From contig CBDBNQ010000002.1 in the NCBI GenBank assembly GCA_965207835.1, forward strand, positions 1,713,224 to 1,777,223: a stretch of DNA of 64,000 bases, in the 5' to 3' direction. Positions 21,933-58,149 of this stretch are shown here, one piece after another. The notes below the pieces were generated by a model. It made no database searches. It had not been told where the DNA came from and saw only the letters and a list, made by a program, of their open reading frames with translations. The DNA comes from Nitrospirales bacterium (GTDB lineage Bacteria; Nitrospirota; Nitrospiria; Nitrospirales; UBA8639). The position numbers and the translations under genes were made by a program. The first letter of the stretch is position 1. Every line of letters begins with the position of its first letter.

Positions 21933-23240
21933 ATGACGGAAGCATTTCCCCTTCGATTACTGGCTCCGCTCGATGGTGAGCCGTGGGATATTGACGGCTA
22001 CGTCAAACGCGGCGGGTATGAGGCGTGGCAACAAGTGATTCGGGACGCCGACCCCGACAGGGTGATTGGTGAGTTGAAGCGAGCGAGTCTGCGAGGCCGG
22101 GGCGGAGCCGGATTTCCGACGGGCTTGAAATGGGATAAGGTCGTGCATCACCGGGAGACGGAACGATATTTCGTCTGCAACGCCGGCGAGCATGAGCCGG
22201 GCACGTTCAAAGACCGGTACCTTGTCGAGCACCACCCGCATCAGTTGATTGAAGGATGTTTGATCGCGGCCTTTACCATTGGTGCGCGGGAGGCCTACAT
22301 TTATTTGAACGCTGAATTTCTGGCAGCCCGGGCGAGTCTGGAAAAGGCCTTGGAGCAAGCCAGGACACGTGGATTTCTCGGCCAAAACGTTCTGGGGTCC
22401 GGGATGGACCTTGAATTGGAGATTTTTGAAGGGCATGGAAGTTACGTCGCCGGCGAGGAAACCGCGATGTTGGAGTCCATGCAGGGTCGTCCGGCGCAAC
22501 CAAAGGAAAAGCCGCCGTTTTACCCCACCGAGTTCGGGCTTCACGGAAAACCGACCCTGGTGAACAACGTCGAAACCCTGTCTCACGTGCCGCACTTGTT
22601 GCGCAATGGGGCGCAATGGTTTACGGCAGTGGGTGCGGAAAAGAGTCCAGGAACCATGTTGTTTTCGTTGAGCGGGGCCGTCAATCGTCCGGGCGTGTAT
22701 GAATTGCCTTTGGGGACGCCGTTGCGCCATCTGATCGAAGAATGCGGAGGAGGCGTTCCACATGGCCGCGGGCTCAAAGCCATCTTTCCTGGGGGACCGT
22801 CCTTTGCCATGATGGGGCCTGAAGCCTTGGACCTGCCCATGGATTTCGATGCCTTGAAGCAGGCCGGGACCGGGTTGGGGTCGGCCGGGGTGATTGTCGT
22901 CGATGATGCCACCTGTATGGTGGGTCAGACCCTCAAGCTCTCAACGTTTTTTCGGGAGGAAAGTTGCGGGCAATGTCCGCCCTGCAGGATTGGGACGGAG
23001 CATCTGGAAGAACTGGTGGCGAAAATCGAGGAGGGGAACGGGACACGGGAAGATCTGGATAAACTCTTGCAGATTTGCGGGTTCGTCAAAGGCACGGGCT
23101 ATTGCACGTTGGTGACGGGCGCCGCCGTCCTGGTCCAAAACAGTCTTCGGCTGTTCCGGCACGAATTCGAGGAGCACGTCGCCAAGCGAGCGTGTCCGTT
23201 TCATCCGACCGCCACGGAACCGGCGATTGCCGTGGGGTGA
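21933..23240 (+). CDS. NuoF-like NAD(H)/FMN-binding [4Fe-4S] flavoprotein (complex I 51-kDa subunit family), stand-alone
   Basis: 435 aa with GRGGAGFPTG, GEHEPGTFKDR and ESCGQCPPCRIG motifs. No nuoE or nuoG neighbours. Confidence 0.85.
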   Translation: MTEAFPLRLLAPLDGEPWDIDGYVKRGGYEAWQQVIRDADPDRVIGELKRASLRGRGGAGFPTGLKWDKVVHHRETERYFVCNAGEHEPGTFKDRYLVEHHPHQLIEGCLIAAFTIGAREAYIYLNAEFLAARASLEKALEQARTRGFLGQNVLGSGMDLELEIFEGHGSYVAGEETAMLESMQGRPAQPKEKPPFYPTEFGLHGKPTLVNNVETLSHVPHLLRNGAQWFTAVGAEKSPGTMLFSLSGAVNRPGVYELPLGTPLRHLIEECGGGVPHGRGLKAIFPGGPSFAMMGPEALDLPMDFDALKQAGTGLGSAGVIVVDDATCMVGQTLKLSTFFREESCGQCPPCRIGTEHLEELVAKIEEGNGTREDLDKLLQICGFVKGTGYCTLVTGAAVLVQNSLRLFRHEFEEHVAKRACPFHPTATEPAIAVG

Positions 23241-29123: not shown

Positions 29124-29290
29124 ACTCGAATGTATTTTCGGAAGAATCAGGCAGCACCCGAACAGCGGTGAATCTAACATGCAGGGTAGGATCGGTCAAG
29201 GTTGTGGGTGGGGTCGATCTCTCATTCTGTACCAACCATGTATAAAAATAAGGTGGCAACCGCATGGCACACTTTGATATGAAGAAAGGC

Positions 29291-30703
29291 ATGACTGACG
29301 TGAGAGTTCGTTTTGCGCCGAGTCCTACGGGGTATCTCCACATCGGAGGCCTGCGTACGGCCTTGTTCAACTGGTTGTTCGTACGACGGCATGGCGGCAC
29401 ATTCATTTTGCGGATTGAGGACACGGATCGCGACCGATCAACCGACGCCGCCATCAAGGCGATTCTGGATGGACTGCGCTGGGCCGGACTGGATTGGGAT
29501 GAGGGCCCGCATCGTCAAAGTGACCGGTTGGATCTCTACCGGCAAAAAGCCATGGAATTGCTCGACCGGGGTCAAGCCTATTGGTGCCTCTGTACGCCGG
29601 AAGAACTCGAAGCGCGGCGGAAGGAAGCTCAGGCCAAAGGGGAATCCCTCAAGTACGACGGCCGGTGCCGTGAGCGCGGCCTGACTGCTCCTGCGGAACC
29701 GGCGGCGCTCAGGTTTCGATCTCCGCAAGAAGGGCAAACCGTTGTCGAGGACCTGATCAAAGGCTCCATCGTGTTCGACAACACCGTACTGGACGACCTC
29801 ATCATTCTTCGGTCGAACGGCTATCCCACGTACAATTTGTCCGTGGTGATCGATGACGCCCTCATGGGAATCACGCACGTGATTCGCGGTGATGATCACG
29901 TCAACAACACCCCGCGCCAAGTGCCCCTGTTCGAAGCGTTGGAGTATCCAGTGCCCAAGTTTGCCCACGTACCGATGATTTTGGGTGAGGATAAATCCCG
30001 GCTGTCCAAACGACATGGCGCCACTTCGGTCCTGGCTTACGAGGAAATGGGATATTTGCCGCAGGCGCTGGTGAATTACCTGGTCAGGCTGGGATGGTCA
30101 CACGGAGACCAGGAAATTTTTTCAATTCGGGAGATGATCGAAAAATTTTCATTTGACCACGTGCAACCATCCGCCGCGGTGTTCAACCTGGAAAAATTGC
30201 AGTGGCTCAACGCGGAATACATCAAACAAGGTGAGTCCCGGCACCTCGCGAAATTGTTAGGTCCCTTTTTGGAAAAGCAGGGATATGACCTGAACGAAGT
30301 CGTTCAGCCATGCGGCGGTATTGAAGCGGTGGTCGCGCACCTGCGCGAGCGCGCCAAAACGTTGGTCGAAATGGCGGACTGGACTATGCCGTATATTGTG
30401 GACCCCGTGGCGATGGACGAAGCCGCGGCCGGCAAGTTTCTCACCCCCGCAATTGCGCCCAGTCTGTACAAGTTTGCCGAACGGGCTAAGACAGTCGAGC
30501 CCTTTTCCAAAGAAACGCTCGAACCCGTGGTGCACGCCATCCTCGAAGAAGAACAGTTGAAGATGGGAAAATTGGCTCAACCGTTACGCGTTGCCCTCAC
30601 TGGAAGAACCTTTAGCCCGGGAATTTATGAAGTTATGGAATTACTGGGTAAGGATCGCACCCTCATACGCATTGAACGGGCGCTTCATCGAATTGGTTCG
30701 TAG
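29291..30703 (+). CDS. gltX: Glutamate--tRNA ligase
   Basis: RFAPSPTGYLHIGG (HIGH) and LSKRHG (KMSKS-type) motifs. Start chosen by analogy to known GltX N-termini. Confidence 0.92.
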   Translation: MTDVRVRFAPSPTGYLHIGGLRTALFNWLFVRRHGGTFILRIEDTDRDRSTDAAIKAILDGLRWAGLDWDEGPHRQSDRLDLYRQKAMELLDRGQAYWCLCTPEELEARRKEAQAKGESLKYDGRCRERGLTAPAEPAALRFRSPQEGQTVVEDLIKGSIVFDNTVLDDLIILRSNGYPTYNLSVVIDDALMGITHVIRGDDHVNNTPRQVPLFEALEYPVPKFAHVPMILGEDKSRLSKRHGATSVLAYEEMGYLPQALVNYLVRLGWSHGDQEIFSIREMIEKFSFDHVQPSAAVFNLEKLQWLNAEYIKQGESRHLAKLLGPFLEKQGYDLNEVVQPCGGIEAVVAHLRERAKTLVEMADWTMPYIVDPVAMDEAAAGKFLTPAIAPSLYKFAERAKTVEPFSKETLEPVVHAILEEEQLKMGKLAQPLRVALTGRTFSPGIYEVMELLGKDRTLIRIERALHRIGS

Positions 30704-44539: not shown

Positions 44540-44568
44540 TTGACACTAACTCCTATTTTTGGTACATT
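44540..44568 (+). promoter_or_regulatory. Candidate sigma70-type promoter for the transposase
   Basis: TTGACA (44540-44545), 17-nt spacer, TACATT (44563-44568). AAAGGAG lies upstream of the ATG at 44606. Confidence 0.4.
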
Positions 44569-44605
44569 ACTAGACACCAAACACAAGCCAAAAGGAGTGT
44601 CAGGC

Positions 44606-45559
44606 ATGCCGAAGAAAGCCCCTGGAAAGTACTACCGACATGGAATCAGCTTGGTGGAATTGATTGACCGTTTCCCCGACGAAGCCTCAGCGCGGACCTG
44701 GTTTGAGTCGATTCGATGGGCCAAAGGCCGGTCGTGTCCACATTGTGCATCCGCTGACACCAAGCCGGTTCCGAACGACAATCCCATGCCGTACCATTGT
44801 GGAGCCTGTCGCAAGTATTTCAGCGTCAAGACGGGCACGGTGATGCAATCCAGTAACCTGTCCTTGCGGAAGTGGGTCGTTGGGTTTTATCTGATGTCTA
44901 CGAATCTCAAGGGCGTTTCCAGCATGAAACTCCACCGGGATTTGAAGGTTACACAAAAGACGGCCTGGATGATGGCCCAGAAGATTCGACAAGCTTGGAA
45001 GAGCGACCAAACGGCCTTGCTTGGGCCGGTCGAAGTCGATGAAACGTATATCGGCGGCAAAGACAAAAACAAGCATGCCAGCAAAAAGACGCAACGCGGG
45101 AATGCCTATGGAGTGAAGCAAGCCGTGGTCGGCATGAAGTCCCGGACCACGAATCAGATTGCGGCCCAACCGATTGATCCAGTCAGCGCCACCACGTTAC
45201 AACGATTTGTCAAAACGAATGCGCCGGACAGAACCCAAGTCTATAGCGATACAAAGCGCGGATACTGGGGCTTACGGAAGGCCGGGTATACCGTGGATCA
45301 AGTGAACCATTCGGCTGGGGAATATGTCCGTGATATGGCCCACACCAATGGCATTGAATCCTTTTGGGCGATGTTGAAGCGAGGCTATCACGGCACCTTT
45401 CACAAGATGAGTGCCAAGCATCTACATCGCTATGTAGATGAGTTTTCCGGTCGGCATAACGTGCGTGAGTTGGATACGATTCAGCAAATGACCGTCATGG
45501 TTCACGGGGTGGTAGGGAAGCAGTTGCCGTATCGGGAGTTGATTGCCAATGCTAGCTAA
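44606..45559 (+). CDS. IS1595-family transposase (zinc ribbon + DDE)
   Basis: CPHC...CGAC zinc-ribbon motif, then KWVVGFYLM...VEVDETYIGGK..., typical of ISXO2-like/IS1595 transposases. Confidence 0.85.
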   Translation: MPKKAPGKYYRHGISLVELIDRFPDEASARTWFESIRWAKGRSCPHCASADTKPVPNDNPMPYHCGACRKYFSVKTGTVMQSSNLSLRKWVVGFYLMSTNLKGVSSMKLHRDLKVTQKTAWMMAQKIRQAWKSDQTALLGPVEVDETYIGGKDKNKHASKKTQRGNAYGVKQAVVGMKSRTTNQIAAQPIDPVSATTLQRFVKTNAPDRTQVYSDTKRGYWGLRKAGYTVDQVNHSAGEYVRDMAHTNGIESFWAMLKRGYHGTFHKMSAKHLHRYVDEFSGRHNVRELDTIQQMTVMVHGVVGKQLPYRELIANAS

Positions 45560-46535
45560 GGTCGGGCAACGGAAGAAGGGCCGGTCGAGGGGGGTTCTGT
45601 TCACACATCCAGCCCAACCTGTCTTCACGTATCGGCAAGCGGTTTTCTATCAGGCAGACTGCTTTGATTGGTTGGAGAAGTGCCCTGATCAGAGCCTGCA
45701 CGCAATTGTAACGGACCCACCTTACGGCCTTCTGGAATATTCCGAAACCGAGCAGCAAAAACTTCGGAATGGCCGAGGCGGAGTCTGGCGGCTCCCTCCG
45801 TCTTTTGATGGGAATGAACGGTCCCCGGTCCCGCGTTTTACCGTCTTGACTGACGAGGACTTGGCGAGAATGCATACGTTCTTTGTCCGGTTCGGCAAGA
45901 CCTTGGTTCGGGTGCTCGTTCCGGGTGCGCACGTCTTCCTTGCGTCGAATCCACTTCTCTCCCACATTGTTGCCTCAGCTCTATCAGGATCAGGGCTGGA
46001 AAGCCGAGGGATGATTATTCGATGTGTCATGACGATGAGAGGTGGGGACCGTCCCAAGAACGCCCATGAAGAATTTCCAGACATCAGTGTGCTGCCCCGC
46101 TCCATGACCGAGCCGTGGTTGTTATTCAGAAAGCCTCTTGAGGGCCGGGTTCAAGATACTCTTCGCAAGTGGGGGACTGGTGGGTTGCGTCGCATATCAG
46201 GCAACCAGCCTTTTGGGGATCTGATACGTTCCCATCCGACTCGCTCGAACGAGAAACGATTGGCCCCACACCCTTCTTTGAAACCTCAAGCCTTTCTCCG
46301 GCAGGTCGTCCGTGCGGCTCTTCCGTTGCAGATGGGGATTATCTGTGACCCGTTTGCGGGGTCCGGCTCAACGTTGGCCGCAGCCAATCATATGGGTTAT
46401 GAAAGTATTGGGATTGAAAGCTCGTCGTATTATACGGGGATGGCACAAAGAGCGGTGCCGGTTCTTGAAAAGATCAGGTGTCTAAGTACACCCAGTTCTG
46501 ACGCCACTTTTGAATGCCTTGCTTGTCGAGGGTAG
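45549..46535 (+). CDS. Beta-class DNA methyltransferase (N6-adenine or N4-cytosine; DPPY type)
   Basis: Motif IV TDPPYG precedes motif I DPFAGSGST (the PF01555-type order). The start overlaps the transposase stop. Confidence 0.85.
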   Translation: MLAKVGQRKKGRSRGVLFTHPAQPVFTYRQAVFYQADCFDWLEKCPDQSLHAIVTDPPYGLLEYSETEQQKLRNGRGGVWRLPPSFDGNERSPVPRFTVLTDEDLARMHTFFVRFGKTLVRVLVPGAHVFLASNPLLSHIVASALSGSGLESRGMIIRCVMTMRGGDRPKNAHEEFPDISVLPRSMTEPWLLFRKPLEGRVQDTLRKWGTGGLRRISGNQPFGDLIRSHPTRSNEKRLAPHPSLKPQAFLRQVVRAALPLQMGIICDPFAGSGSTLAAANHMGYESIGIESSSYYTGMAQRAVPVLEKIRCLSTPSSDATFECLACRG

Positions 46536-47085
46536 ACGTTCTGGTACCCAATGCCCCTCGTGGATTGTTGCGAAAATCGGAGATTTCGACATGACCCAAA
46601 TAGATTTCTGTGAACGTCAGCGGTGCCCGATCAACCAGCGGTTCAGTTTTGTCGTCGATACGATAGACAAACACACAAAACCATTGCTTCCTGGCTCCGT
46701 GGGTATCCACGGCCCCGCCTCTCTTTTGAGTGCATTTGATCTCAACACCTTGTTCTGGTGCGCCGGATTTTACGGCATTGTTGGGGTGGATACCATTTAC
46801 AATGAGATCGGGGTGGCCGTTATGGTAGGTGTTTTCGACAAGCGTTGTCGAATGGCTAGCTAATCCAGAAGTCACAAGGTCAGATAGAACGCCGGACATG
46901 ATTGCAGACCGCACAATGTCATCTAAACGTCGTAGGCCCTTGGCTAAAAGGGCCGTGTTCACATCATGGAATAAGTCGTACACGTCCTGCATGGCCAATG
47001 CGAAGTCTTTAATCCGAAGATTAAAAGGCAGGTCGGCTTCTTGGTTGAATTTTGTGTCGTTCGGAGTTTGACGAATGATAGCCAT
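46474..47085 (-). CDS. Putative type II restriction endonuclease (PD-(D/E)XK signature)
   Basis: 203 aa. GHPDLIV ... GVEIKCTQK fits PD...(D/E)XK. Convergent with the methyltransferase, with a 62-nt overlap. Confidence 0.55.
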   Translation of the reverse strand: MAIIRQTPNDTKFNQEADLPFNLRIKDFALAMQDVYDLFHDVNTALLAKGLRRLDDIVRSAIMSGVLSDLVTSGLASHSTTLVENTYHNGHPDLIVNGIHPNNAVKSGAPEQGVEIKCTQKRGGAVDTHGARKQWFCVFVYRIDDKTEPLVDRAPLTFTEIYLGHVEISDFRNNPRGALGTRTSTLDKQGIQKWRQNWVYLDT

Positions 47086-47292: not shown

Positions 47293-47409
47293 GCCCGGAT
47301 GTCTAGTATTGTATATAATTCCCCAAATTTTCGCTTGACAGTTCATTCCGTTGCTGCCACCTTATTTCCCCTTGTGCGTAGTATTCACAATTCAAAAAAG
47401 GAGGGAGTC

Positions 47410-47619
47410 ATGATGAGGCTCGCTGCTTATTTGCTGTTGGTATTGCTATGTTCAGTTGTATTGGCGGTCCCGGTGTTCGCTCAGTCTGGGTCTGGGAGTG
47501 CTGTATATGGCATGGTTCAGGAAGATCCTGCACCTGCTCCTGAACCCTGTACGCCTGCTCCCGATAAACCCTGTCCTGAACCGGAACCGGAACCGGAACC
47601 GGAACCGGAAAAGTCATAA
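47410..47619 (+). CDS. Small secreted Pro/Glu-repeat protein
   Basis: AAGGAGGGAG RBS, then MMRLAAYLLLVLLCSVVLAVPVFAQ signal-like sequence, then a PEPEPEPEPEPE tail. Followed by a strong terminator. Confidence 0.55.
   Translation: MMRLAAYLLLVLLCSVVLAVPVFAQSGSGSAVYGMVQEDPAPAPEPCTPAPDKPCPEPEPEPEPEPEKS
47581..47610. repeat. (CCGGAA)5 hexanucleotide tandem repeat within the CDS
   Basis: Five perfect units, preceded by CCTGAA. Confidence 0.9.
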
Positions 47620-47626
47620 AAGCAGA

Positions 47627-47660
47627 AAGGGGTGCTACCTCGGTAGCACCCCTTTTCTTC
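47627..47660 (+). terminator. Rho-independent terminator
   Basis: GGGGTGCTACC / GGTAGCACCCC stem followed by TTTTCTTC. Confidence 0.7.
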
Positions 47661-47754: not shown

Positions 47755-47891
47755 GCTGGATCCTCGATTAAAGATGTCGAGGATGACAGAAGGGGGGAAA
47801 GCGCCCTCACCCCGGCTCTCTCCCGGAGGGCGAGGGTGAAAAAAAGAGAAAGGCCCTCTACCTCCCCTCGCCCCTCCTTACAAAAGAGGGG
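47755..47891. repeat. REP-like intergenic repeat cluster
   Basis: Contains GGATCCTCGATTAAAGATGTCGAGGATGAC, GCCCTCACCCCGGCTCTCTCCCGGAGGGCGAGGGTG and CCTCCCCTCGCCCCTCCTTACAAAAGAGGGG modules. Confidence 0.6.
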
Positions 47892-47897
47892 AACTTA

Positions 47898-48425
47898 CTA
47901 CATGTGCAAATGTTTCATGGCGGCGGCGCAGAGGATGATGAAGATGCCCATCCAGAGGCCGGCTTTTTGGAAGGGAATGGGTTCGACGATCTGTTCTTCT
48001 TTTTCCTGTTCGTCTTCGTCGCCCGTGGGTTCGATGCGGAAGATGACGGTATACAGAAACAAGGTCAAAATGCCGAGCACCAAGGTGAGCTTGATGAAGA
48101 AGATCGTCAGATACTTGGCGTTGTTGGACAGGCCGAAGCCGGTTTGCATTTCCATGGCTTCGCTCACGTAATGCAGGTTGATGCCGCCCGTAAAGAGGAT
48201 CACCACCAGCAGCATGCCCACTACCTTGCGATACTGCTTGTAGAACGTGTCACAGATGGGTTTGATGTATTCCCTGGGCACGGACGATTGGAGCCCCGGT
48301 GTCACCGCCAGGACCAGGAACGCGAGCCCGCCGATCCACACGACGGCCGAGAGCAGGTGCAGCCAGTGATTGACAATGGGAATGATTTTGTTGATATCGG
48401 ACAGCGTGGCCAGGAGGGCATTCAT
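47898..48425 (-). CDS. CopD-like integral membrane protein
   Basis: 175 aa from MNALLATL. HWLHLLSAVVWIGGLAFLVL helix plus three further hydrophobic segments. The start overlaps the radical-SAM stop by 1 nt. The long track ORF N-terminus was rejected. Confidence 0.6.
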   Translation of the reverse strand: MNALLATLSDINKIIPIVNHWLHLLSAVVWIGGLAFLVLAVTPGLQSSVPREYIKPICDTFYKQYRKVVGMLLVVILFTGGINLHYVSEAMEMQTGFGLSNNAKYLTIFFIKLTLVLGILTLFLYTVIFRIEPTGDEDEQEKEEQIVEPIPFQKAGLWMGIFIILCAAAMKHLHM

Positions 48426-49783
48426 CAGAATTTGAACACCGGTTTCTCGTTGCCGAAGCGTTTTTGGCGAAGCTCTTCCATCAATTCGACGGTGATGCGC
48501 GGGACGTTGTGCTCGCGGGCGTGCCGTTCGGTGCCTTTTTTCACCATGGCGCGCAGGAAGTAGGGAATCCGGCTTAACCGTGCCTGCGCGGCTTCGTCCC
48601 ACTCCACCTCGACGTCCTCCGGTACGTTGAATGCGACTTGGATCTTTTCCCCGCCCTTGGGCGTATACAGGCACCACTCGTCCTCGTCCATCCAGTCCCC
48701 GTGATCCACGTAGGGCCGCGCGCGGCAGCCGCCGCAGATCTCGCTGTATTCGCAGTCTCCGCATTTGCCCTTCAGGTGGGGGTACCGGAACGAGTCGAAG
48801 ATGTCCGACTTTTCCCACAGGTCCACGAAACTCGTGGTCCGGATGTTGCCGGCCGACAGGGGCATGTAGGGACAGGGGGTCAGGTCGCCGTTGGGCGTGA
48901 CCCGCGCGTAATTCGTCCCGGCCAGGCAGCCCCCGCCCATGTATCCCTGCGCCTTGGTGATCGGGGAGTCGGGGTCTTTTTCATAGGCGAGGCGCTTGAA
49001 GTGTGGGGCGCACCGCGCGCGTACCAGCATGTCAGAGTACCGGTCCTGGCTCTCCACCAGGAAGGCCAGCACTTCCTCATACTGTTCAGGGCTGATATCG
49101 GTCAGTTCCTCGCCTCGTCCCGTGCAGACCATGAAGAAGACGTTCAGCACCCGCGCGCCCAAGCCGTGGGCCCAGTCGATCACGTCCGGCAGTTCCTTGT
49201 AGTTCATGGGTTGGGCGCTGAAGTGCACTTGGAATTGCAGGCCATTTCGTTTGCAGGCCTCGATGCCCGCAACCGCCGCCTCCCAGGCCCCGGGTATGCC
49301 GCGAAACGCGTCATGTTTGGCTGCGTCCAGGGAGTCGATGCTGATGCCCATGCCCATGACGCCGATCTCGACGAGTTCGCGGGCGAGGCGATCGTTGATC
49401 AGCATGCCGTTGGTGCCGAAGACGACCATGAACCCCTGGCTCACGGCGTGGCGGGCGATGTCCAGGATGTCCGGTCTGACCAGGGGTTCGCCCCCGGTGA
49501 TGACCAGCAGGCAGCCTTTATTGACCTCGGCGATCTGGTCGATCAGCCGGTAACATTCCTCGGTCGAAAGCTCGTCGGATCCCCCGCCGGCCTTGGTGGT
49601 CGCGTCCAGGTAACAGTGGTCACACTTGAGGTTGCAGCGTTTGGTCAGGTTTAGGGCGACGAGATAGGGCTTGAAATCATCGACGGTCCGGCCGTCGCCG
49701 GGACCTGGAGAGGTAAACCCGGTGACGCGAGTGTCGAGCCCTTCCCGTTGCGGGGCGTTGATGACAGGGAGAGATTTGCCCAT
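48425..49783 (-). CDS. Radical SAM / SPASM protein with C-terminal PCP_red-like domain
   Basis: CNLKCDHCY cluster motif. Cys-rich SPASM region (CPYMP...CGDCEYSEICGGCRARP). ~70-aa tail WDEAAQARLSRIPYFLRAMVKKGTERHAREHNVPRITVELMEE. Confidence 0.85.
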   Translation of the reverse strand: MGKSLPVINAPQREGLDTRVTGFTSPGPGDGRTVDDFKPYLVALNLTKRCNLKCDHCYLDATTKAGGGSDELSTEECYRLIDQIAEVNKGCLLVITGGEPLVRPDILDIARHAVSQGFMVVFGTNGMLINDRLARELVEIGVMGMGISIDSLDAAKHDAFRGIPGAWEAAVAGIEACKRNGLQFQVHFSAQPMNYKELPDVIDWAHGLGARVLNVFFMVCTGRGEELTDISPEQYEEVLAFLVESQDRYSDMLVRARCAPHFKRLAYEKDPDSPITKAQGYMGGGCLAGTNYARVTPNGDLTPCPYMPLSAGNIRTTSFVDLWEKSDIFDSFRYPHLKGKCGDCEYSEICGGCRARPYVDHGDWMDEDEWCLYTPKGGEKIQVAFNVPEDVEVEWDEAAQARLSRIPYFLRAMVKKGTERHAREHNVPRITVELMEELRQKRFGNEKPVFKF

Positions 49784-49789
49784 GGCTCC

Positions 49790-51829
49790 CTATTGTTGAG
49801 CGCCTGCACCGGTCAGTTTGGCGATGATGTCCTTGACGTTGCCGGACTTCATGGCTTCTTCCATGGTGTGTTTGGCTTGCTCTATCCCTTCGTTCGCCAC
49901 GTCGATGGTGATGTGCGTGGTGCCCAGCTTTTCGGCGTGCTTGATAATGAGTGCTTTGGTGCAATCGCGCATGAACCCTTCCGGGGCGCGTTCCAAGCGC
50001 TTCATGGCCTCGGGCTCCCAACGATAGGGCGAGTCGGGTTCCGGCTCGCTTGTCGGTGTGGCGGGTTGTTCCGCATTGGCGAAAATCGGTGTGTAGTCTT
50101 CGTTGGCGGCTTCGTCAATCATGGGCGAGGCATACTCCAGGGTGATCGTGGTCATGCCGAGCTTCCTGGCGGATTTTTCGATCTTGGCTTTGGCTCGGCG
50201 GCGTTGGAATCCTGCGGGGACCGCCCTGATGGCTTCCTTGGCGTCCTTGGTCCATTGCATGGGCACGTCGTCGTAAGCCAGTTGCGTTTCCAGGACCCCT
50301 TCCTGCTTGGCCGCGGCGTCAAACACGCTCTTGTCGACGGTTTTGAAGCCGTCGCCCGCTCCCCCGCAAATCGGGCACTTGACGGGTTGAGCGCCTTTTC
50401 CGATGTAGCCGCATCCGTTGCAGACGTAATACGGCTGGGCCATGCGGTCCAGATAAGATTGCGTGGATGGGCTCACCGCGGAATTCGCTACGGGCTCCTT
50501 TTCTTCAACCACCTGGTTGACCATGCCGCTGAGGGTCGAACCCATGATGTCCTGGGCCACGGCGTCATCGGCCTGCATCCGGTCGCGGTCGATGCCGGCT
50601 TCGTCGAGTTGGCCGCCCAGGGCCTTCATAGCATCCATGGCTCCTTTGGGCAGGATGTCGCCGACCGCGTCGTCCACCACCGAATTGCTAATGATGGTGT
50701 GGCCTTTTTCAATGGCATAGCGGTGAATGGCGGTTTTGGCGACGCCGCGCGCGAACACCGGCACCTTTTCCATGCGCAGTAGGGCTTCCTCGGTCCAAGC
50801 GATGGTGTATTCCGCCTGGGTGTCGATCGGCGGCACGAATCTTTTGTTGGAGATCAGGATGTTACAGGAGGCCGCCCGGAGCAGGTTTTCGGTGTTGCTG
50901 CCGATGTCCATGTCGTCGTCGCTGTGCACGCCGATACGCCCGACGATCAGCAGCCAGGGTTGTTCCTTACGCACGTACTGGATGACTTTTTCAAACGCCT
51001 TACCGTCCAGGAGCGTGGTGCGGATGTCCGACCCCTCTTCCTGAGCCATTTCCCGGGAAATGTCCAGGTGCGATTGATAGATTTTGGCCAGCCCGCTGTC
51101 GATCACTTCCTCGTGGAGTTTTTCCTGTTCCTTGAAGCGAAAGACTTTGCCGGCCTCTTCGTTCAGGACTCCGGAAATGCTGTGGAACGCGGCGTAGTGG
51201 AAATACGGATCGAACGCGGAAATGGCCTCGACCGGTTTGTTCAGGGCTTTCCCCAGGGCGAGGCCGGTTTTCAACCCGCCGAAGCTGTACGGGCTGCCGT
51301 CCACGGCCACGACGATTTTCCCCCCGTTCATGGGCTTCAGGTCTTTCACGATGAACATGTCCGAATTGCGAACCCGGCGCAGGACCCGTTCGGTATTGCT
51401 GCCGATCACGGAATCTTTCACGGCGCCCACCCCGAGCGAGCCCATAATGGTCAGATCGTAGGCGTTGGTGTTGATGTCTTCGGCCAACACCTTCCAATTG
51501 CGACCCTCGAGGGACCGGCGTTCCAGGGGGAGATTCGACTCGGTACATCTCTGATCCACGTAGTCCAGATAGGAATCGGTGATGATCTGGAGCCCGCGTG
51601 TGATGAGAGAGTCGTGAATCTTGCGTTGGCGGTCGAGTTCTTTTTCGTCGTGATATTCCTCGGGCAGGCCCGCTTCCATCTGCTTGAACCGCTTGTCGTG
51701 CATCTTGGCGGCATAGACGTGGCTGCCGACGATTTTCGACCCGAATTCCTGTGCCAACCGCACACCCAGGTCGACGGCCATATTGGAATGGTCGGAATTG
51801 TCGACCGGGATGTAGATGGTTTTATACAT
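49790..51829 (-). CDS. Multidomain protein: two universal-stress (USP) domains, three PCP_red-like domains and a rubredoxin-like CxxC...CxxC knuckle
   Basis: 679 aa with two USP modules (IYIPVDNSDHS..., IVVAVDGSPYS...). The motif W(T/E)xEAxxxxxxxPxFxRxxxxxxIExxA-like recurs three times. Also has YVCNGCGYIGKGAQPVKCPICG. Confidence 0.75.
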   Translation of the reverse strand: MYKTIYIPVDNSDHSNMAVDLGVRLAQEFGSKIVGSHVYAAKMHDKRFKQMEAGLPEEYHDEKELDRQRKIHDSLITRGLQIITDSYLDYVDQRCTESNLPLERRSLEGRNWKVLAEDINTNAYDLTIMGSLGVGAVKDSVIGSNTERVLRRVRNSDMFIVKDLKPMNGGKIVVAVDGSPYSFGGLKTGLALGKALNKPVEAISAFDPYFHYAAFHSISGVLNEEAGKVFRFKEQEKLHEEVIDSGLAKIYQSHLDISREMAQEEGSDIRTTLLDGKAFEKVIQYVRKEQPWLLIVGRIGVHSDDDMDIGSNTENLLRAASCNILISNKRFVPPIDTQAEYTIAWTEEALLRMEKVPVFARGVAKTAIHRYAIEKGHTIISNSVVDDAVGDILPKGAMDAMKALGGQLDEAGIDRDRMQADDAVAQDIMGSTLSGMVNQVVEEKEPVANSAVSPSTQSYLDRMAQPYYVCNGCGYIGKGAQPVKCPICGGAGDGFKTVDKSVFDAAAKQEGVLETQLAYDDVPMQWTKDAKEAIRAVPAGFQRRRAKAKIEKSARKLGMTTITLEYASPMIDEAANEDYTPIFANAEQPATPTSEPEPDSPYRWEPEAMKRLERAPEGFMRDCTKALIIKHAEKLGTTHITIDVANEGIEQAKHTMEEAMKSGNVKDIIAKLTGAGAQQ

Positions 51830-52259
51830 GAGAAGCCTCCTTACGAAACTTCACGAGTTTATTCGAGTCCCACACCTGCAGCCGAATGCGAGAAGTCGCA
51901 CCTCAAGCGCAAAAAAATTGAAGGCGGATCTTAGCACCTGGCGTTCAGGCAATGCAACAAAATGTGGGTGCATCACTTGTAGATAGGGTCCAGTCTTCGG
52001 CATCAAGTCGTCTTTGGAATCATGCGAATCCTGCCGGCATTGAAAATTTTTTGAAATCCGTTTAGTATCTGCCGCATCCGTTCACGGCAGGAAAGGTACG
52101 GGAAACTCCTGGAAGTGCGAGGAGGGGGTTCTCTTTGTCCATATCGAGAGAGGATCTGCTAGGACGCTTGAGTTCATTCCAGTTTGGCTTGGGCTTATAT
52201 GGGAAATACTGGCAACTATTTGAAAATACTTGATTTTTTTCAATGCGAGAACGTTGTAT

Positions 52260-52290
52260 TTGACAAACCTACCTCGTTTTTCTTTATGGT
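52260..52290 (+). promoter_or_regulatory. Candidate promoter for metK
   Basis: TTGACA (52260-52265) and TATGGT (52285-52290), separated by a 19-nt spacer that is longer than optimal. Confidence 0.3.
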
Positions 52291-52422
52291 AGGCGGTCTT
52301 TGGGCTGCCATCTGTGGTGTTCTGGGCAACCCGATTCTTTAACGCTTCAACAAGGCACTCCTTTCCTGCAGGATGGACGGGAGCTGCCTTTTTGTTTATT
52401 GAGCCAGGGAAAGGTGACCGTA

Positions 52423-53580
52423 ATGAGTCAACAGAATTTTTTGTTTACCTCCGAGTCCGTGACCGAGGGGCATCCGGACAAAATCGCCGACCAGATATCC
52501 GATGGCATCCTGGATGCCATTATGGCCAAGGATAAAAATTGCCGCGTGGCGTGTGAGACGATTCTGACGACCGGTTTGGCGTTCGTGGCGGGAGAAGTTT
52601 CCACGAAGGCCTACGTGGAAATACCGGATATTATTCGAGAAACCATCCGTGACGCGGGCTATACCGATGCCACGTGGGGGTTCGATTACCGCACCTGCTC
52701 GGTATTGACGGCGATTGATGCCCAATCAGGTGATATTGCCATGGGTGTGGATACCGGCGGAGCAGGTGATCAGGGATTGATGTTCGGCTACGCCGCTAAC
52801 GAGACGAGCGAATTGATGCCCATGCCGATCGTGTTGGCCCATCGTCTGACGAAACGCTTGGCGGAGGTCCGGAAGACGAACCTGTTACCTTGGGTGCGCC
52901 CGGACGGCAAGGCCCAGGTGACCGTCGAGTATAAGAACGGTAAGCCGGTCCGCATCGATACGATCGTGGTCTCGACCCAGCATAGCGACAAGGTGACGTC
53001 CAAGAAAATCGAGCAGGAAATTAAGGAAAAAGTCATCAAACCCGTGATGCCAAAGGGGATCTTCAACCCGAACAAGGTGACGTTTCACATCAACCCGACG
53101 GGCCGGTTCGTGACGGGGGGGCCCATGGGCGATACCGGGTTGACCGGTCGCAAGATCATCGTCGATACCTATGGAGGCGTGGGGAGTCACGGCGGCGGGG
53201 CCTTTTCCGGCAAGGACCCCAGTAAGGTGGATCGGTCGGCGTCGTACATGGCCCGGTATATTGCCAAGAATATCGTGGCGGCGAAATTGGCCGAGAAATG
53301 TGAAGTGCAATTGGCGTACGCGATCGGGGTGCCGGAACCCGTCTCCGTGCTGGTCGACGCAAAAGGGACGGAGAAAGTCGCGATTGAGGTCATCGACAAA
53401 CTGATCCGGAAACATTTCCCGATGACCCCGCGTGGAATCATCGATCATTTGAAACTGCGACGTCCTATTTATAAACAGACGGCTGCCTACGGGCACTTTG
53501 GGCGAAGCGGCCCGGGGTTCACCTGGGAAAAAACAGATAAGTCCTCGATTTTGAAACAGGCCGTCGACGTGTACCTGTGA
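52423..53580 (+). CDS. metK: S-adenosylmethionine synthase
   Basis: [19 protein letters not shown] and GGGAFSGKD motifs. ATG at 52423. Confidence 0.95.
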
Positions 53581-53622
53581 CGTTGAGGGTTGATCGAGTC
53601 CAAGCAGAAGGGAGCGACGAGC

Positions 53623-55005
53623 ATGAGTACAACTGCGCAACTGGAGAACACGGTGTGTGATTATAAAGTGGCGGATATCAGCTTGGCTGACTGGGGCCGG
53701 AAAGAGATTCAGATAGCCGAAACGGAAATGCCCAGCTTGATGGCCTTGAGGGAGAAATATCGAGCGGCGCAGCCCCTCAAGGGTGCCAGGATTCTCGGGT
53801 GCATTCATATGACGGTCCAGACGGCTGTCCTGATTGAGACCCTGATGGAGTTGGGAGCCGAAGTGCGGTGGTCCTCGTGCAACATTTTCTCCACACAGGA
53901 TCACGCCGCGGCCGCGATCGCGGCCCGGGGCATTCCGGTGTACGCCTGGAAAGGCGAAACGCTCGAAGAATATGACTGGTGCCTCGAGCAGACCATTCTG
54001 AAGGATGGCCGGCCCTGGGACGCCAACATGGTCCTGGATGACGGGGGTGATTTGACCCTGATGCTCCACGAAAAGTATCCGGCGATGTTGGATAAAATCC
54101 ACGGCATCACGGAAGAGACCACCACGGGGGTGTACCGGCTGCAGGAGCGGCTGGAAAACGGCACCCTGAAAGTGCCGGTCGTCAACGTCAACGATTCCGT
54201 CACGAAGTCGAAAAACGACAATAAATACGGATGCCGGCACAGTTTGAACGACGCAGTGAAGCGTGGCACGGACCATCTCTTATCCGGGAAAAAAGCCCTG
54301 GTGGTCGGGTATGGCGACGTGGGGAAAGGGTCAGCCCAATCCCTGCGCCAGGAAGGCATGATCGTACGCGTGTCGGAAATCGACCCCATTTGCGGGATGC
54401 AGGCCTGCATGGACGGCTTTGAGGTCGTATCGCCCTACAACGATGGAATCAATACGGGGAACGTGGAAGACATCAACGCGGCGCTGTTGGGCAGTACGGA
54501 CCTGGTCGTGACGGCTACCGGCAATTATAACGTCTGTGACGCCGCCATGTTGCAAAAGCTCAAACCGGGAGCCGTGGTCTGCAATATCGGCCATTTCGAC
54601 AATGAAATCGATACGGCCTACATGCGGAAACATTGGGAGTGGGATGAAGTCAAGCCGCAAGTGCATAAGATCTATCGGAGCGCGCTTGCCAACGACCATC
54701 TGATCCTCCTGTCCGAAGGGCGTCTGGTCAATCTGGGCAATGCGACCGGTCATCCTTCCCGGATTATGGACGGGTCCTTTTCCAACCAGGTCCTGGCACA
54801 AATTTATCTGTTCGGGAAGAAATTCGCCGATACTCCCGGGGCTCCGGTCACGGTTGATGTGCTGCCGAAGAAGCTGGATGAAGAAGTGGCCGCCTATATG
54901 GTGCGCGGGTTCGGTGGGACGTTGACCAAACTCACCAAAGAACAGGCCTCCTACATCAATGTGTCCGTCGAAGGCCCGTTCAAACCGGAAGCCTACAGGT
55001 ACTGA
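53623..55005 (+). CDS. ahcY: Adenosylhomocysteinase
   Basis: [16 protein letters not shown] start and [11 protein letters not shown] motif. ATG at 53623 with a GAAGGGAG RBS. Confidence 0.95.
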
Positions 55006-55199: not shown

Positions 55200-55814
55200 A
55201 TGCCGACAATGTATGAGGTTCTACCAGGTCCGGAACATTTTCTGCCCCCGGCGGCAGCCAGTATGGGCATTCGTTTGCCGGATCCGGGGCAGGCACATAT
55301 TCATGGAAAAATCGTCAACGAGGATGAGGCCATGGAAGTCGCGGCCCGTAAATTCTTATCGGCCAAGGTTCCGACGATCTTCCCGGGTCCGCTGGTTCTG
55401 TGGGCCTGGAATGAAAAAGCGGCCAAGAAGGCCACGGCAATCAGGCACCTCTATGAAACGATCAAGGAAAGTGTCACCCCGTCCCAACAGGCGATGCTCA
55501 TTCCCATGCCCGATTACCGGCCCAAATATCCGAAGATCAACCCTGAAATCGAAATCAATCCCAACCATCCCAACCTCACAATTTGGCATAACAAGATCGA
55601 TGCCTGCATGTTCGTCGGGGTGCATTGCCATCAGGCGAACCTGTCCCTCAAGATTATCCGGGGCGGCACGTATTGTTATACCATCGCCATGTGCGCCCAG
55701 GCGGGCCATGAAGACGCCATGGTATCGTTCCGTGATGCGACGGCCGACAAAATCATGAAATTGGCCGATTGGGTGAAAAAGTTAAAAGGGTCGGTCGAGC
55801 CGCCGAAAGACTGA
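55200..55814 (+). CDS. Extra (delta-like) subunit of five-subunit 2-oxoacid:ferredoxin oxidoreductase
   Basis: 204-aa ORF heading the OFOR cluster. Assigned by position only, by analogy to the Hydrogenobacter five-subunit enzymes. Confidence 0.6.
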   Translation: MPTMYEVLPGPEHFLPPAAASMGIRLPDPGQAHIHGKIVNEDEAMEVAARKFLSAKVPTIFPGPLVLWAWNEKAAKKATAIRHLYETIKESVTPSQQAMLIPMPDYRPKYPKINPEIEINPNHPNLTIWHNKIDACMFVGVHCHQANLSLKIIRGGTYCYTIAMCAQAGHEDAMVSFRDATADKIMKLADWVKKLKGSVEPPKD

Positions 55815-55943
55815 ATGTCGGGCGTCAGCAATTTTTTATTTATTTACCGTTCATGTGGCGCTACAATGCAGCAATATTTCCCGTTCAGATGAAACGCCCT
55901 GTGAGCAGAAGCCGGTAGTCCTAATACAAAAGGAGGCGCAGTC

Positions 55944-57152
55944 ATGGCAACGCAATCGTTAGTCGGGACCAAGAACAGAGCCGGTCAGGTGGTCGCCGAT
56001 CCCTGGAAGATGTTGCATGAAGCCGAGCGAACCCCCTGCTTTTTTACGGGCAGTGAAGTCATCAAGGAAGCGATCCGGCGGGCCAATTGCGACGTGATGA
56101 TTGCCTATCCGATTACCCCGCAGAGTGAAGCCGCGGCGTTGATCGGTGAATTGTTTGCCGAAGGGTTTATCGGCGACTACTTTCGCGGGGAAAGCGAGTT
56201 CGCGGTCATGTCCCAATGTGCCGGGGCGGCCTTCGGCGGCGCACGCGTGTTCACCACAACCGCGGGTCCGGGCACTATGCGTGCCATGGAGAACTTTCCG
56301 ATGTGGGCCGGGGCGCGGCTGCCCATTCAAATGATCGTGACCTGTCGAGGCATCAACTCGCCGCTCTCCATCCAGCCGGACACGTTGGAAATTTCGTATC
56401 TGTTGAACACCGGGATGCTGGTCTGGCACGCCGAGACGGCACAGGACTTTTATGACTGGATTTTGAAGGGGTACATGGTGTCGGAAGAACCTGACGTGCA
56501 TTTGCCGTTGGCGCTGTGTTGCGACGGGTTTTTCGTGACCCACACCAAAGACGTGGTCAACCTGACGCCCGCGGACGTGTGCTTACCGCCCTATGACCCG
56601 TACCGGTCGCCGGTCCCGTGTATGGACATGGAATGCCCGCCGGTCCGCATGATGCGTGACCCGTTCGTCATGAAGAGTAACTATATCAGTTATGCCACCC
56701 ATGCAAGCTGGCAACAGGAAGTCTGGGCGGCGGTGGAGCGGTCCCGGAAGCACACCATCCGGTGGTTGGACGGCTTGATTGAAGTGGACCGGCCCAATGC
56801 CGAGATTTTGATCGTCTCATCCGGCACCGCGGTGTCCCAGGGTCGTGAAGCCCAAGCCCTCCTGGAAGAGGACGGCATTGACGTGGGCATCGTCAAAATC
56901 AAATCCCTGCGACCGTGGCCGGGAGACGAAATTCGGGAAGCCACCAAAAATGCCAAGCACATCATCGTGCCGGAGTTCAATGTCACGGGTTGGCTCGCCA
57001 AAGAAATCCGTGCCACGATTTCGGATGCGGATCGCGTGTATGCCGGTCCTCACGTCTGCGGAGGCATGACCATGCCGCCTGAAGTCATCGTGGCCGACCT
57101 GAAAAAGCATTTAGGCGTTAAAGCCGAAAGTTTGGCCGGACGAGGGAGCTGA
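55944..57152 (+). CDS. 2-oxoacid:ferredoxin oxidoreductase alpha subunit
   Basis: 402 aa. IAYPITPQSE start region typical of the POR/KOR alpha subunit. AAAGGAGG RBS. Confidence 0.85.
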   Translation: MATQSLVGTKNRAGQVVADPWKMLHEAERTPCFFTGSEVIKEAIRRANCDVMIAYPITPQSEAAALIGELFAEGFIGDYFRGESEFAVMSQCAGAAFGGARVFTTTAGPGTMRAMENFPMWAGARLPIQMIVTCRGINSPLSIQPDTLEISYLLNTGMLVWHAETAQDFYDWILKGYMVSEEPDVHLPLALCCDGFFVTHTKDVVNLTPADVCLPPYDPYRSPVPCMDMECPPVRMMRDPFVMKSNYISYATHASWQQEVWAAVERSRKHTIRWLDGLIEVDRPNAEILIVSSGTAVSQGREAQALLEEDGIDVGIVKIKSLRPWPGDEIREATKNAKHIIVPEFNVTGWLAKEIRATISDADRVYAGPHVCGGMTMPPEVIVADLKKHLGVKAESLAGRGS

Positions 57153-57228
57153 CGCGGTGTTACTGCCGTCCAGTCCACCCGGCATGTGAATGACCATGAA
57201 ATTTCCGAATATGCGCTAGGAGGAGACC

Positions 57229-58149
57229 ATGAGCAAGGAACGTATTAAGATAGCTCCCGAAATGTTCGATATTATGCCCGAGGAGTACCAGGATCTGGTT
57301 GAACGCGCCACGTACGGGAAGGATGGTCGCGGGTGGAAGGATATCGGGACCTCGAAGGAATTGATTGAAGAGCATTCGTTGTGTGCCGGGTGTCCGGAGT
57401 CCATGGCGTTCCGGTATATCCTGGCGTCATTGCCGGCCCCCGAGGATACCGTGATGGTGGGATCCACCGGCTGCACCAGCCTGGTCTTCCCCCATGTGGG
57501 CGTCCACAATATTCATTCCCTCTTCGGCAACCAGAACGCCATTGCCTCCGGGCTCAAACGCGCGCTCAGCGTGCGGTTCCCCGGCCGAGTCAAGGACGTG
57601 GTGGTGTTGGCGGGTGACGGGGCCACGGTGGATATCGGTCTCGATATGACGCTGCAAGCCTGGTTCCGGCAGGAAAAATTCACGACCATTTGTTTCGACA
57701 ACGAGCTCTACGCCAACACGGGCGGCCAGGAGAGCGGACTGATGCAAAAAGGGTTCGTGGCCAAGATGGCGCCCGTGGGCAAGACCTTTGAAAAGGTGAA
57801 ATTGCCGGAAATCGCGCGTGAGTCCGGATGTCACTACGTGGTGAATTGTACGGTCAGCAAACCAAACCTGGTGGAAAAAGTCATCAAGAATGCGATCCAC
57901 GTGGCCCGCGAGATCGGACCCACGTATTTGCAGCTCTACACCCCGTGCATCCTGGAAATCGGGAAGAACAGCATGGAAGGCTTGCAGGAAATGCGGGACT
58001 CCGAGAAGCCGACCGAACGGTTTGCATATAAAGAATACGTCAGCGATGAAGCCAAGGAATTGTTGACCGAACTGGCGGCGAAGGAAAAAGAGCGAAAGGC
58101 CGCCGCGAAAAAGCAATTGGCTGAAAAGCAACTGGCGGGCAAGGCCTGA
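57229..58149 (+). CDS. 2-oxoacid:ferredoxin oxidoreductase beta subunit (TPP-binding)
   Basis: CAGCPES cysteine motif and GDGATVDIG TPP motif. Confidence 0.85.
   Translation: MSKERIKIAPEMFDIMPEEYQDLVERATYGKDGRGWKDIGTSKELIEEHSLCAGCPESMAFRYILASLPAPEDTVMVGSTGCTSLVFPHVGVHNIHSLFGNQNAIASGLKRALSVRFPGRVKDVVVLAGDGATVDIGLDMTLQAWFRQEKFTTICFDNELYANTGGQESGLMQKGFVAKMAPVGKTFEKVKLPEIARESGCHYVVNCTVSKPNLVEKVIKNAIHVAREIGPTYLQLYTPCILEIGKNSMEGLQEMRDSEKPTERFAYKEYVSDEAKELLTELAAKEKERKAAAKKQLAEKQLAGKA

Follow-up and report, generated by a model that had tools for sequence, protein, structure and literature searches.

A tandem USP–radical SAM–membrane protein operon of Nitrospirales as a candidate terminal haem-biosynthesis module

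A 64,000-nucleotide stretch of Nitrospirales DNA (hereafter the window) carries a three-gene operon, A-B-C, that we read as a terminal haem-biosynthesis module, with a probability of roughly 0.55. A sequence-only reading had left its function unknown. It can be narrowed to terminal haem synthesis, given that HemY (a proto/coproporphyrinogen oxidase) fills the place of C in the operons of a sister clade, that B shows the AhbD-specific cysteine spacing and that the module adjoins bd-like oxidase and cytochrome c genes in several lineages. B would be an AhbD-type enzyme using SAM and three [4Fe-4S] clusters to convert the two propionate side chains of a coproporphyrin-type tetrapyrrole into vinyl groups by oxidative decarboxylation; its substrate would most likely be Fe-coproporphyrin III (coproheme), yielding haem b. 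A, a previously undescribed protein that has the PCP_red domain in common with B, would serve as an ATP-binding tandem-USP scaffold with a rubrerythrin-type Fe(Cys)4 centre, and PCP_red would tie B to A as a common module for docking or for handing over the tetrapyrrole. Since C occupies the HemY slot of the sister operons, it probably supplies the porphyrinogen-oxidising step or a membrane electron sink, possibly via the Cys4 centre of A. The haem product would feed respiratory haemoproteins, for instance bd-like oxidases and c-type cytochromes.

Operon layout and conservation

All three genes lie on the minus strand, as do the protein features given below by window position, and ORF calls assign them 679, 452 and 175 aa, the length of C being counted from an internal ATG. 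The tight co-directional packing described earlier is borne out by ORF coordinates and junction sequences: A (49790..51829) and B (48425..49783) are separated by 6 nt (TAG ggagcc ATG), and B and C (47898..48425) overlap by 1 nt (tgATG). A terminator-like hairpin with a T-run, detected by consensus scan only, is located 29 nt 3' of the C stop codon (47844..47869, minus strand). On the other side, an intergenic region (51830..52419) separates A from the divergent metK. It contains a Shine-Dalgarno sequence, AAGGAGG (51836..51842), and a weak sigma-70-like site (52215..52243, minus strand) whose match is not above shuffled expectation; no Rfam element was found in it. The host is a nitrite-oxidiser-type bacterium, and the window lacks a photosynthesis context, as had been remarked. 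Neither the window nor Nitrospira-type loci contain ferrochelatase, uroporphyrinogen decarboxylase or other haem genes, and none adjoins the A-B-C operon of the window.

Co-conservation of the three genes, on which the earlier proposal depended, is extensive: A-B-C recurs in the same order at more than 100 independent loci, and this order is kept across Nitrospirota down to ~60% identity. In 132 of the 135 loci where this can be assessed, A comes before B. Among 159 B loci, the next gene is C in 110, HemY in 35 and neither in 2, with insufficient downstream room to judge in 12. The HemY gene of the sister operon, which overlaps B by 4 nt, scores 250.7 bits on TIGR00562 (cut-off 97.85). A carries its Cys4 knuckle at each of 66 loci with C and lacks it at each of 18 with HemY. 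The split between C and HemY runs mostly along two clades and could be largely historical; in a quick neighbour-joining tree, the HemY-linked B of locus L151 falls within C-linked B sequences, which suggests more than one C/HemY swap.

The family occurs chiefly in Nitrospirota, Nitrospinota, Manganitrophus and Mariprofundaceae. A is found alone in Nitrospinota and is thus not a strict partner of B, and at two loci (L072, L073) A-C stands beside a genuine copC-copD pair with B absent. Respiratory genes are frequent neighbours. A, with or without B, repeatedly neighbours genes for bd-like oxidases and cytochrome c; in L085, L170, L171 and the L087 clade, those adjoining the module encode bd-like oxidase subunit I and cytochrome c. 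ResB adjoins the module in L084, and aa3 oxidase and SCO1 genes adjoin A in L088.

Domain content of the three proteins

B is a radical SAM/SPASM protein with a C-terminal PCP_red domain (Pfam: Radical_SAM 84.7, SPASM 39.1 and PCP_red 57.7 bits). At residues 50–57 (49613..49636), CNLKCDHC supplies the CX3CX2C motif for the radical SAM cluster. A full SPASM motif, with cysteine spacing for two auxiliary clusters, extends from C258 to C371 (48671..49012), and PCP_red occupies residues 390–442 (48458..48616; Pfam residues 395–439). The SPASM spacing, C258-x27-C-x17-C-x36-C-x2-C-x5-C-x2-C-x17-C371, is kept in five distant homologues, and all eight cysteines match exactly the spacing published for AhbD, CX20-33CX17CX36-37CX2CX5CX2CX17-35C (PMC10452713). 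The NirJ/AhbD-like character proposed for the radical SAM core was confirmed, as the best NCBIfam models for B are NirJ2 (TIGR04055, 332 bits) and AhbD (TIGR04545, 318 bits), each over the full model length. Both scores fall below the cut-offs of 500, so the protein does not sit firmly inside a characterised family such as AhbD, the outcome that would have spoken against the earlier reading. By these scores, which reach only ~65% of the trusted cut-offs, B is AhbD/NirJ2-like without firm membership and at most a candidate orthologue. JGI and NCBI names of B family members include 'AdoMet-dependent heme synthase' and 'heme biosynthesis protein'.

A combines two USP domains, one PCP_red copy, a Cys4 knuckle and two further PCP_red copies (ORF and Pfam; Usp 103.8 bits in two stretches, PCP_red 105.4 bits in three), and its AlphaFold model has a pLDDT of 86. 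USP domain 1 (approximately residues 1–165; 51335..51829) carries the ATP motif G130-x2-G-x9-G-S, and G130, G133, G143, D10 and S12 are invariant among 38 diverse homologues. USP domain 2 (residues 171–326; 50852..51319) carries the corresponding G297-x2-G-x9-G-S motif and a conserved helical insert, DPYFHY...QEKLHEE, with invariant columns in the alignment. With ATP motifs at residues 130–144 and 297–311, A qualifies as a tandem USP, and its N-terminal half matches TTHA0350-ATP within that group. PCP_red copy 1 (residues 340–392; 50654..50812; Pfam 345–388) aligns to the NMR structure 2L09 and the BchB C-terminus; copies 2 and 3 span residues 521–574 (50108..50269) and 599–652 (49874..50035) by Pfam. 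Between copies 1 and 2 lies the rubrerythrin-type knuckle (residues 465–496; 50342..50437), in which C470-x2-C...C485-x2-C forms the motif at residues 470–488. It scores 19.5 bits on RUBY_RBDX (PF21349), below the cut-off of 26.5, and 29.4 bits on the NCBIfam nigerythrin model, aligning to the nigerythrin Fe(Cys)4 domain; the A homologue in L079 reaches 49 bits on RUBY_RBDX.

All domain calls of the sequence-only reading, including three PCP_red copies in A and one in B, were recovered with Pfam. Both proteins pass the PCP_red threshold (PF08369, 32.5 bits), and the domain matches have E-values of 1e-15 to 1e-30, far beyond chance. Beyond the A/B system, PCP_red has been described in subunit B of DPOR, itself a tetrapyrrole enzyme; we know of no established function for it, even in DPOR. 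Identity with DPOR subunit B itself (TIGR01278) was rejected, as the nitrogenase-like Oxidored_nitro core is missing and only the last ~50 model positions match (58–67 bits against cut-offs of 490–509). PCP_red-only proteins are also encoded in the operon of some relatives, one of them 67 aa long and beside the enzyme in L084. In the alignment, only W, P, R and A are near-invariant in the domain and no His, Cys or Met is conserved, making axial haem ligation unlikely. PCP_red may plausibly bring A and B into contact or bind a tetrapyrrole that both share.

C, a small membrane protein, was assigned by Pfam, NCBIfam and alignment to the CopD/DUF4149/HemJ superfamily, and is predicted to have four helices in a low-confidence structure model. 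The 'CopD-like' label given earlier survives at this superfamily level and fails for CopD proper: C scores 21.8 bits on Pfam CopD (PF05425, cut-off 32.1) and 38.9 bits on the NCBIfam model (NF033808, cut-off 195), has four helices and has no CopC encoded in its operon. DUF4149 gives 18.9 bits. The window's C has no match to HemJ (PF03653, cut-off 34.2), and weak UPF0093 matches occur in 4 of 15 C family members (best 19.9 bits). With hhalign probabilities of 33% against HemJ and 53% against real CopD, C is, by Pfam and hhalign, nearer to CopD/DUF4149 than to HemJ. The CopD Pfam model is also hit, at 37.9 bits, by a genuine member of the HemJ family. H23 in helix 1 is the sole invariant His in the C family alignment; in HemJ, one conserved helix-1 His acts as a haem ligand.

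Alternative explanations

Placing B one step earlier, as an oxygen-independent coproporphyrinogen III decarboxylase (the HemN job on an AhbD scaffold) with C or HemY as protoporphyrinogen IX oxidase, would retain the propionate-to-vinyl chemistry, and HemY and HemJ act straight after coproporphyrinogen decarboxylation in the protoporphyrin pathway. We consider this unlikely, as the nearest characterised relatives of B use iron-containing coproheme or sirohaem derivatives, and to our knowledge no AhbD-family enzyme acts on a porphyrinogen. The translational coupling of B and HemY, the position of C or HemY next after B at all but two loci with room, and the functional coupling of HemJ with coproporphyrinogen oxidase described in a 2026 review would suit the earlier step, whereas reviews place AhbD in organisms that use the coproporphyrin-dependent route, in which HemY functions as CgoX. 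It is quite improbable that B instead produces or modifies an unusual tetrapyrrole, such as an altered haem for bd-like oxidases, or performs a NirJ-like step, with A and the PCP_red-only proteins carrying the intermediate. Such a role is compatible with scores outside the AhbD and NirJ2 cut-offs, with extra PCP_red-only proteins in the operon, and with a family concentrated in lithotrophs that have bd-like oxidases (nitrite, manganese and iron oxidisers), whose genes are often adjacent. The pairing with the mainstream enzyme HemY, however, fits ordinary haem b synthesis better, the module contains no conserved nirS or other nir haem d1 gene, methyltransferase or oxygenase, and literature on unusual haem in these organisms was not found.

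Peptides are the substrates of most SPASM enzymes, and B could accordingly be imagined as a protein or peptide maturase of the PCP_red repeats of A or of PCP_red-only proteins, recognised via its own PCP_red. The enzyme does bear the domain, and neighbouring gene products, among them the 67-aa protein, contain it in many copies, but we regard this function as very improbable: PCP_red offers no conserved Cys, Pfam detected no PqqD/RRE domain in B, which does not qualify as a RiPP maturase, the best matches of B are tetrapyrrole enzymes with the AhbD-specific cysteine spacing, and the HemY link would be left unexplained. Scarcely any weight falls on a stress or copper-homeostasis operon in which A would act as a universal stress regulator, C would supply the oxidases with copper in the manner of CopD, and B would be co-transcribed without a related function. 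USP and CopD family matches, the copC-copD pair beside A-C, the SCO1 and aa3 oxidase genes beside A, and the increase of USPs under low oxygen in Nitrospira marina point that way. Yet C is half the size of CopD and below both of its cut-offs, with one invariant His and no CopC partner; the CopD Pfam model matches HemJ too; and the PCP_red domain common to A and B, with their strict adjacency, argues for joint function.

Comparison with known systems

Set against AhbD and NirJ2, the terminal haem-synthesis module proposed here has a radical SAM enzyme with an extra C-terminal PCP_red, present in up to three copies in relatives of B. Unlike AhbD, the B family occurs in aerobic or microaerophilic lithotrophs, has no ahbA, ahbB or ahbC nearby, and is paired with a USP-PCP_red protein. 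Residues 1–330 of A share the fold of tandem ATP-binding USPs such as Rv2623, UspE and TTHA0350 (Foldseek E-values of ~1e-16 to 1e-11; matches include 3CIS and 3AB8), along with both G-x2-G-x9-G-S/T motifs, but the long, conserved helical inserts with many invariant His residues are peculiar to A, which also adds the C-terminal PCP_red array and Cys4 knuckle.

The same ~50-residue helical domain forms the BchB/ChlB C-terminus and stand-alone PCP_red proteins (PDB 2L09, 2KRU), whose motif W..eA..RL..vP.F.R...E..A...G...IT is common to the A and B copies. Here, in contrast to DPOR, it resides on a radical SAM enzyme and a tandem USP rather than on a nitrogenase-like subunit, occurs in one to five copies per protein, and belongs to a non-phototrophic host. 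In both Pfam and NCBIfam, CopD is the family that C matches best, and C aligns to the CopD C-terminal half but has four helices rather than eight, a single invariant His and no CopC partner. As for the porphyrinogen oxidases, C shares with HemJ (PgdH2) the superfamily and the helix-1 pattern H-L-x-x-x-x-x-W-x-G-G, and with HemY (PgoX/CgoX) its position in the operon.

Gene layout and domain composition

Genes A, B and C form a compact run on the minus strand: A (49790..51829, a 679-aa ORF) ends 6 nt before B (48425..49783, a 452-aa ORF), which overlaps C (47898..48425, 175 aa counted from an internal ATG) by 1 nt at a tgATG junction. AAGGAGG lies 5′ of A and a terminator-like hairpin 3′ of C. 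An Rfam search of the leader region of the operon found no riboswitch, and a promoter scan of the operon gave no matches above chance. Four long ORFs (219–344 aa) run antisense to A, B and C within 47904..51934 (+). We rejected these, e.g., 47904..48563 (+) and 48638..49654 (+), as high-GC artefacts; at some loci, such ORFs displaced gene C in automatic ORF picking.

Pfam searches bore out the domains that the sequence-only reading had assigned to A, namely two Usp (103.8 bits) and three PCP_red domains (105.4 bits), the latter known from the C-terminus of subunit B of protochlorophyllide reductase (DPOR). Their order is a USP pair, one PCP_red, a CxxC...CxxC knuckle, and two further PCP_red. 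The knuckle had also been read correctly as a motif and aligns with the nigerythrin/rubrerythrin Fe(Cys)4 domain, but its Pfam rubrerythrin-type match is sub-threshold. The AlphaFold model of A (pLDDT 86) adopts a tandem USP fold with Rv2623, UspE, and ATP-bound TTHA0350 as the best structural matches; USP matches dominated this fold search, which gave no information on PCP_red. The ATP motif G-x2-G-x9-G-S is found in either half of the USP pair and is invariant in 38 homologues of only 36–60% identity. Either half also contains a long helical insertion in which numerous His, Asp, Glu, and Gln residues are invariant. The His-rich inserts (residues 37–97 and 207–264, ~51040..51721; invariant His 37, 44, 72, 211, 239, and 254) might form a metal or ligand site. 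In a representative-sequence search, ~1,380 clusters (50% identity) matched A at E ≤ 0.001, with residues 1–400 as the conserved core and a variable C-terminal PCP_red/knuckle array.

The Radical_SAM, SPASM, and PCP_red (57.7 bits) domains proposed for B were likewise recovered by Pfam. Its top NCBIfam models are the radical SAM tetrapyrrole enzymes NirJ2 (332 bits) and AhbD (318 bits), which match end-to-end yet below their 500-bit cut-offs; AhbC, NirJ, and peptide maturase models score far lower. Besides CNLKCDHC, B contains eight further cysteines (C-x27-C-x17-C-x36-C-x2-C-x5-C-x2-C-x17-C), a spacing that fits the full-SPASM motif reported for AhbD of methanogens and sulfate reducers (PMC10452713). 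B is thus AhbD-like in architecture, while its C-terminal PCP_red marks it as a separate subfamily. Some database relatives of B are named "AdoMet-dependent heme synthase" or "heme biosynthesis protein", and most simply "radical SAM protein". A PDB sequence search returned no relatives of AhbD, NirJ, HemJ, or CopD.

Both A and B share PCP_red with DPOR subunit B and with PCP_red-only proteins, and a tetrapyrrole substrate is a feature shared by the enzymes that bear it. No conserved His, Cys, or Met was found in the domain, so we favour docking or binding of carboxylate side chains over axial ligation as its probable mode of action. A profile search for PCP_red architectures returned only short fragments and stand-alone proteins, and our literature search found no papers on the domain outside chlorophyll synthesis. 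A second kind of PCP_red/radical SAM pairing occurs at locus L169 (5242..7243), where a stand-alone 80-aa PCP_red gene directly follows a B12-binding radical SAM gene; this differs from the one upstream of A in Nitrospira loci, to which it is 24% identical.

Protein C had been called CopD-like, which holds for the superfamily; its own Pfam CopD and DUF4149 matches are sub-threshold only. Across 15 family members (26–71% identity), W21, H23, L24, W30, G32, and G33 (helix 1), P43, T79-G-G-x-N83, K112, and A167 are invariant, H23 being the sole invariant His. The CopD model matches 14 of these 15 members, DUF4149 matches 13, and UPF0093 (HemJ) matches four weakly. A Synechocystis HemJ sequence taken for comparison scores 172 bits on PF03653, which makes it a valid family sequence, and also 37.9 bits on the CopD model, so a CopD match fails to separate copper transporters from HemJ-type proteins. 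HemJ carries out oxygen-independent porphyrinogen oxidation. Profile comparison (hhalign) gave C a probability of just 33% against this HemJ versus 53% against genuine CopD, and we therefore do not claim HemJ membership. C is a CopD/HemJ-superfamily member, with four helices in a low-confidence model (pLDDT 58), and belongs clearly to no named family.

Gene order and surroundings

Relatives of A were found at no fewer than 592 loci in a genome-collection scan. Nearly all of the best 80 matches are labelled Nitrospirota, and these show the order A-B-C wherever the contig is long enough. Of 135 assessable loci, 132 have A before B. Among more distant relatives, the order in Candidatus Manganitrophus is A-B, a 330-aa PCP_red-only protein, and C; in Mariprofundaceae it is ResB, A, a 67-aa PCP_red protein, and a radical SAM gene; in Nitrospinota, A stands alone. 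At L072 (5745..7770) and L073, A and C occur without B, convergent to genuine copD (123 bits) and copC (72.9 bits).

In 67 of 110 assessable loci (L146, 1037..2665, plus 66 more from Nitrospira), a gene for a B12-binding radical SAM protein sits 90–470 nt ahead of A in the same orientation, often with a UbiE-type methyltransferase gene before it. The radical SAM gene is slr0320-like at 447 bits, short of the cut-off of 775, and the pair, absent from the window, may represent quinone tailoring genes co-transcribed with A-B-C. Other neighbours of A-B-C are not kept between clades. Respiratory genes adjoin A (with or without B) in several lineages: those for bd-like oxidase subunit I, for a number of c-type cytochromes, and for cupredoxins or Rieske/cytochrome b at L085, the L087 clade (13 loci), L170, and L171, and those for an aa3 oxidase with SCO1 at L088; these are haem-rich respiratory complexes of the lithotrophs. 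In the window, metK and ahcY (52420..55005) are divergent from the operon, with 590 nt between A and metK; this adjacency is confined to a marine Nitrospirales clade (L001–L018, L048, L061) and is probably not functional, so we rejected a link to the SAM cycle.

The window comes from a Nitrospirales bacterium; its identity to the closest genome (L001, OZ243914.1) is 99% over A and B and 97% over C. In L001, der directly follows C, without the window's insertion at 44540..47085, which comprises an IS1595-family transposase, an N6/N4 DNA methylase, and a 203-aa ORF on the opposite strand. At 47299..47656, a 106-aa ORF with a signal-peptide-like N-terminus and a (Pro-Glu)n repeat at its end precedes a strong terminator-like hairpin, bidirectional and with a stem of 14 bp (47625..47656). 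The genes at 55200..58149, a CO_dh epsilon-like subunit and then 2-oxoacid:ferredoxin oxidoreductase-type ORFs, look like a five-subunit POR/OGOR of the reverse TCA cycle. Elsewhere lie a type I restriction R subunit (1394..4357), an IS481-type integrase (11882..13012), a NuoF-like subunit (21933..23240), glutamyl-tRNA synthetase (29264..30703), and four tRNA genes.

Alternation of C with HemY

Scanning metagenomes with a distant B as seed uncovered a sister clade whose operon encodes A without the knuckle, B with one to three PCP_red domains, and the porphyrinogen oxidase HemY (250.7 bits against a protoporphyrinogen oxidase equivalog cut-off of 97.85), which overlaps B by 4 nt. Among 159 loci with B, the next gene is C in 110 and HemY in 35; 12 contigs leave no room to tell, and two have room yet encode neither. 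The knuckle of A is present at 66/66 loci with C and absent at 18/18 with HemY. These loci, like those counted for C and HemY, were not sampled independently, and inheritance could account for much of the pattern. A quickly built NJ tree of B, without support values, places the HemY-linked sequences mainly in one clade; one of them, L151, lies among C-linked ones, which hints that the swap happened more than once. An apparent rSAM-HemY fusion at L121 was discarded as an artefact of an ambiguous base run.

A proposed role in terminal haem synthesis

The simplest account, to which we assign a probability of about 0.55, is that A-B-C is a terminal haem-synthesis module. B would do what AhbD does and decarboxylate two propionates oxidatively. 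Reviews record AhbD from organisms that use the coproporphyrin-dependent pathway and lack the other Ahb enzymes; HemY (CgoX) is part of that pathway, and the A-B-HemY operon therefore fits. In HemY's place, C would perform oxygen-independent porphyrinogen oxidation or act as a membrane sink for electrons from the oxidative chemistry. The AhbD auxiliary cluster has been proposed to pass the remaining electron to an external acceptor (PMC10452713). The co-variation of C with A's Fe(Cys)4 knuckle would suit a relay that starts at B and reaches C by way of the knuckle. Against the haem-module account, B falls short of the family cut-offs, ~20 other window ORFs scanned gave no further haem gene, A lacks B in Nitrospinota and L088, and A-C lacks B beside copCD in L072 and L073.

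Other roles fit parts of these data. That B acts on coproporphyrinogen is unlikely. Production by B of a special tetrapyrrole for the bd-like oxidases is a slightly weaker candidate again. We consider a protein maturase role very improbable and give equally little credence to a stress or copper operon. Public records name A only "universal stress protein", B "radical SAM protein", and C "hypothetical" or "CopD-domain protein".

If the haem-module account is right, A-B-C offers candidates for the AhbD electron acceptor, so far only proposed, and for enzymes finishing haem synthesis in non-model phyla, where knowledge is incomplete. The hosts are globally important nitrifiers (Nitrospira) and manganese and iron oxidisers. 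Proof that PCP_red docks partners or carries porphyrins would give the domain a function, and replacement of HemY by C would constitute a new porphyrinogen-oxidising system related to HemJ. A rather doubtful extension combines these elements: C and the knuckle of A would form a hitherto unrecognised oxygen-independent porphyrinogen dehydrogenase or electron sink doing HemY's job, PCP_red would serve both radical SAM enzymes and DPOR as a general domain for docking or tetrapyrrole hand-off, and A, as an ATP-gated carrier, would deliver porphyrin to the bd-like oxidases of nitrite, manganese, and iron oxidisers. Our literature search (PCP_red/PF08369; AhbD in Nitrospira; haem synthase with USP) found no description of the A-B-C module. 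The enzyme class of B is already known; new relative to that literature are the PCP_red fusion, the obligate USP-PCP_red partner, and the alternation of HemY with a small CopD/HemJ-superfamily protein. Should the extended proposal be true, C with the knuckle of A would join HemY, HemG, HemJ, and CgoN as a further isofunctional enzyme.
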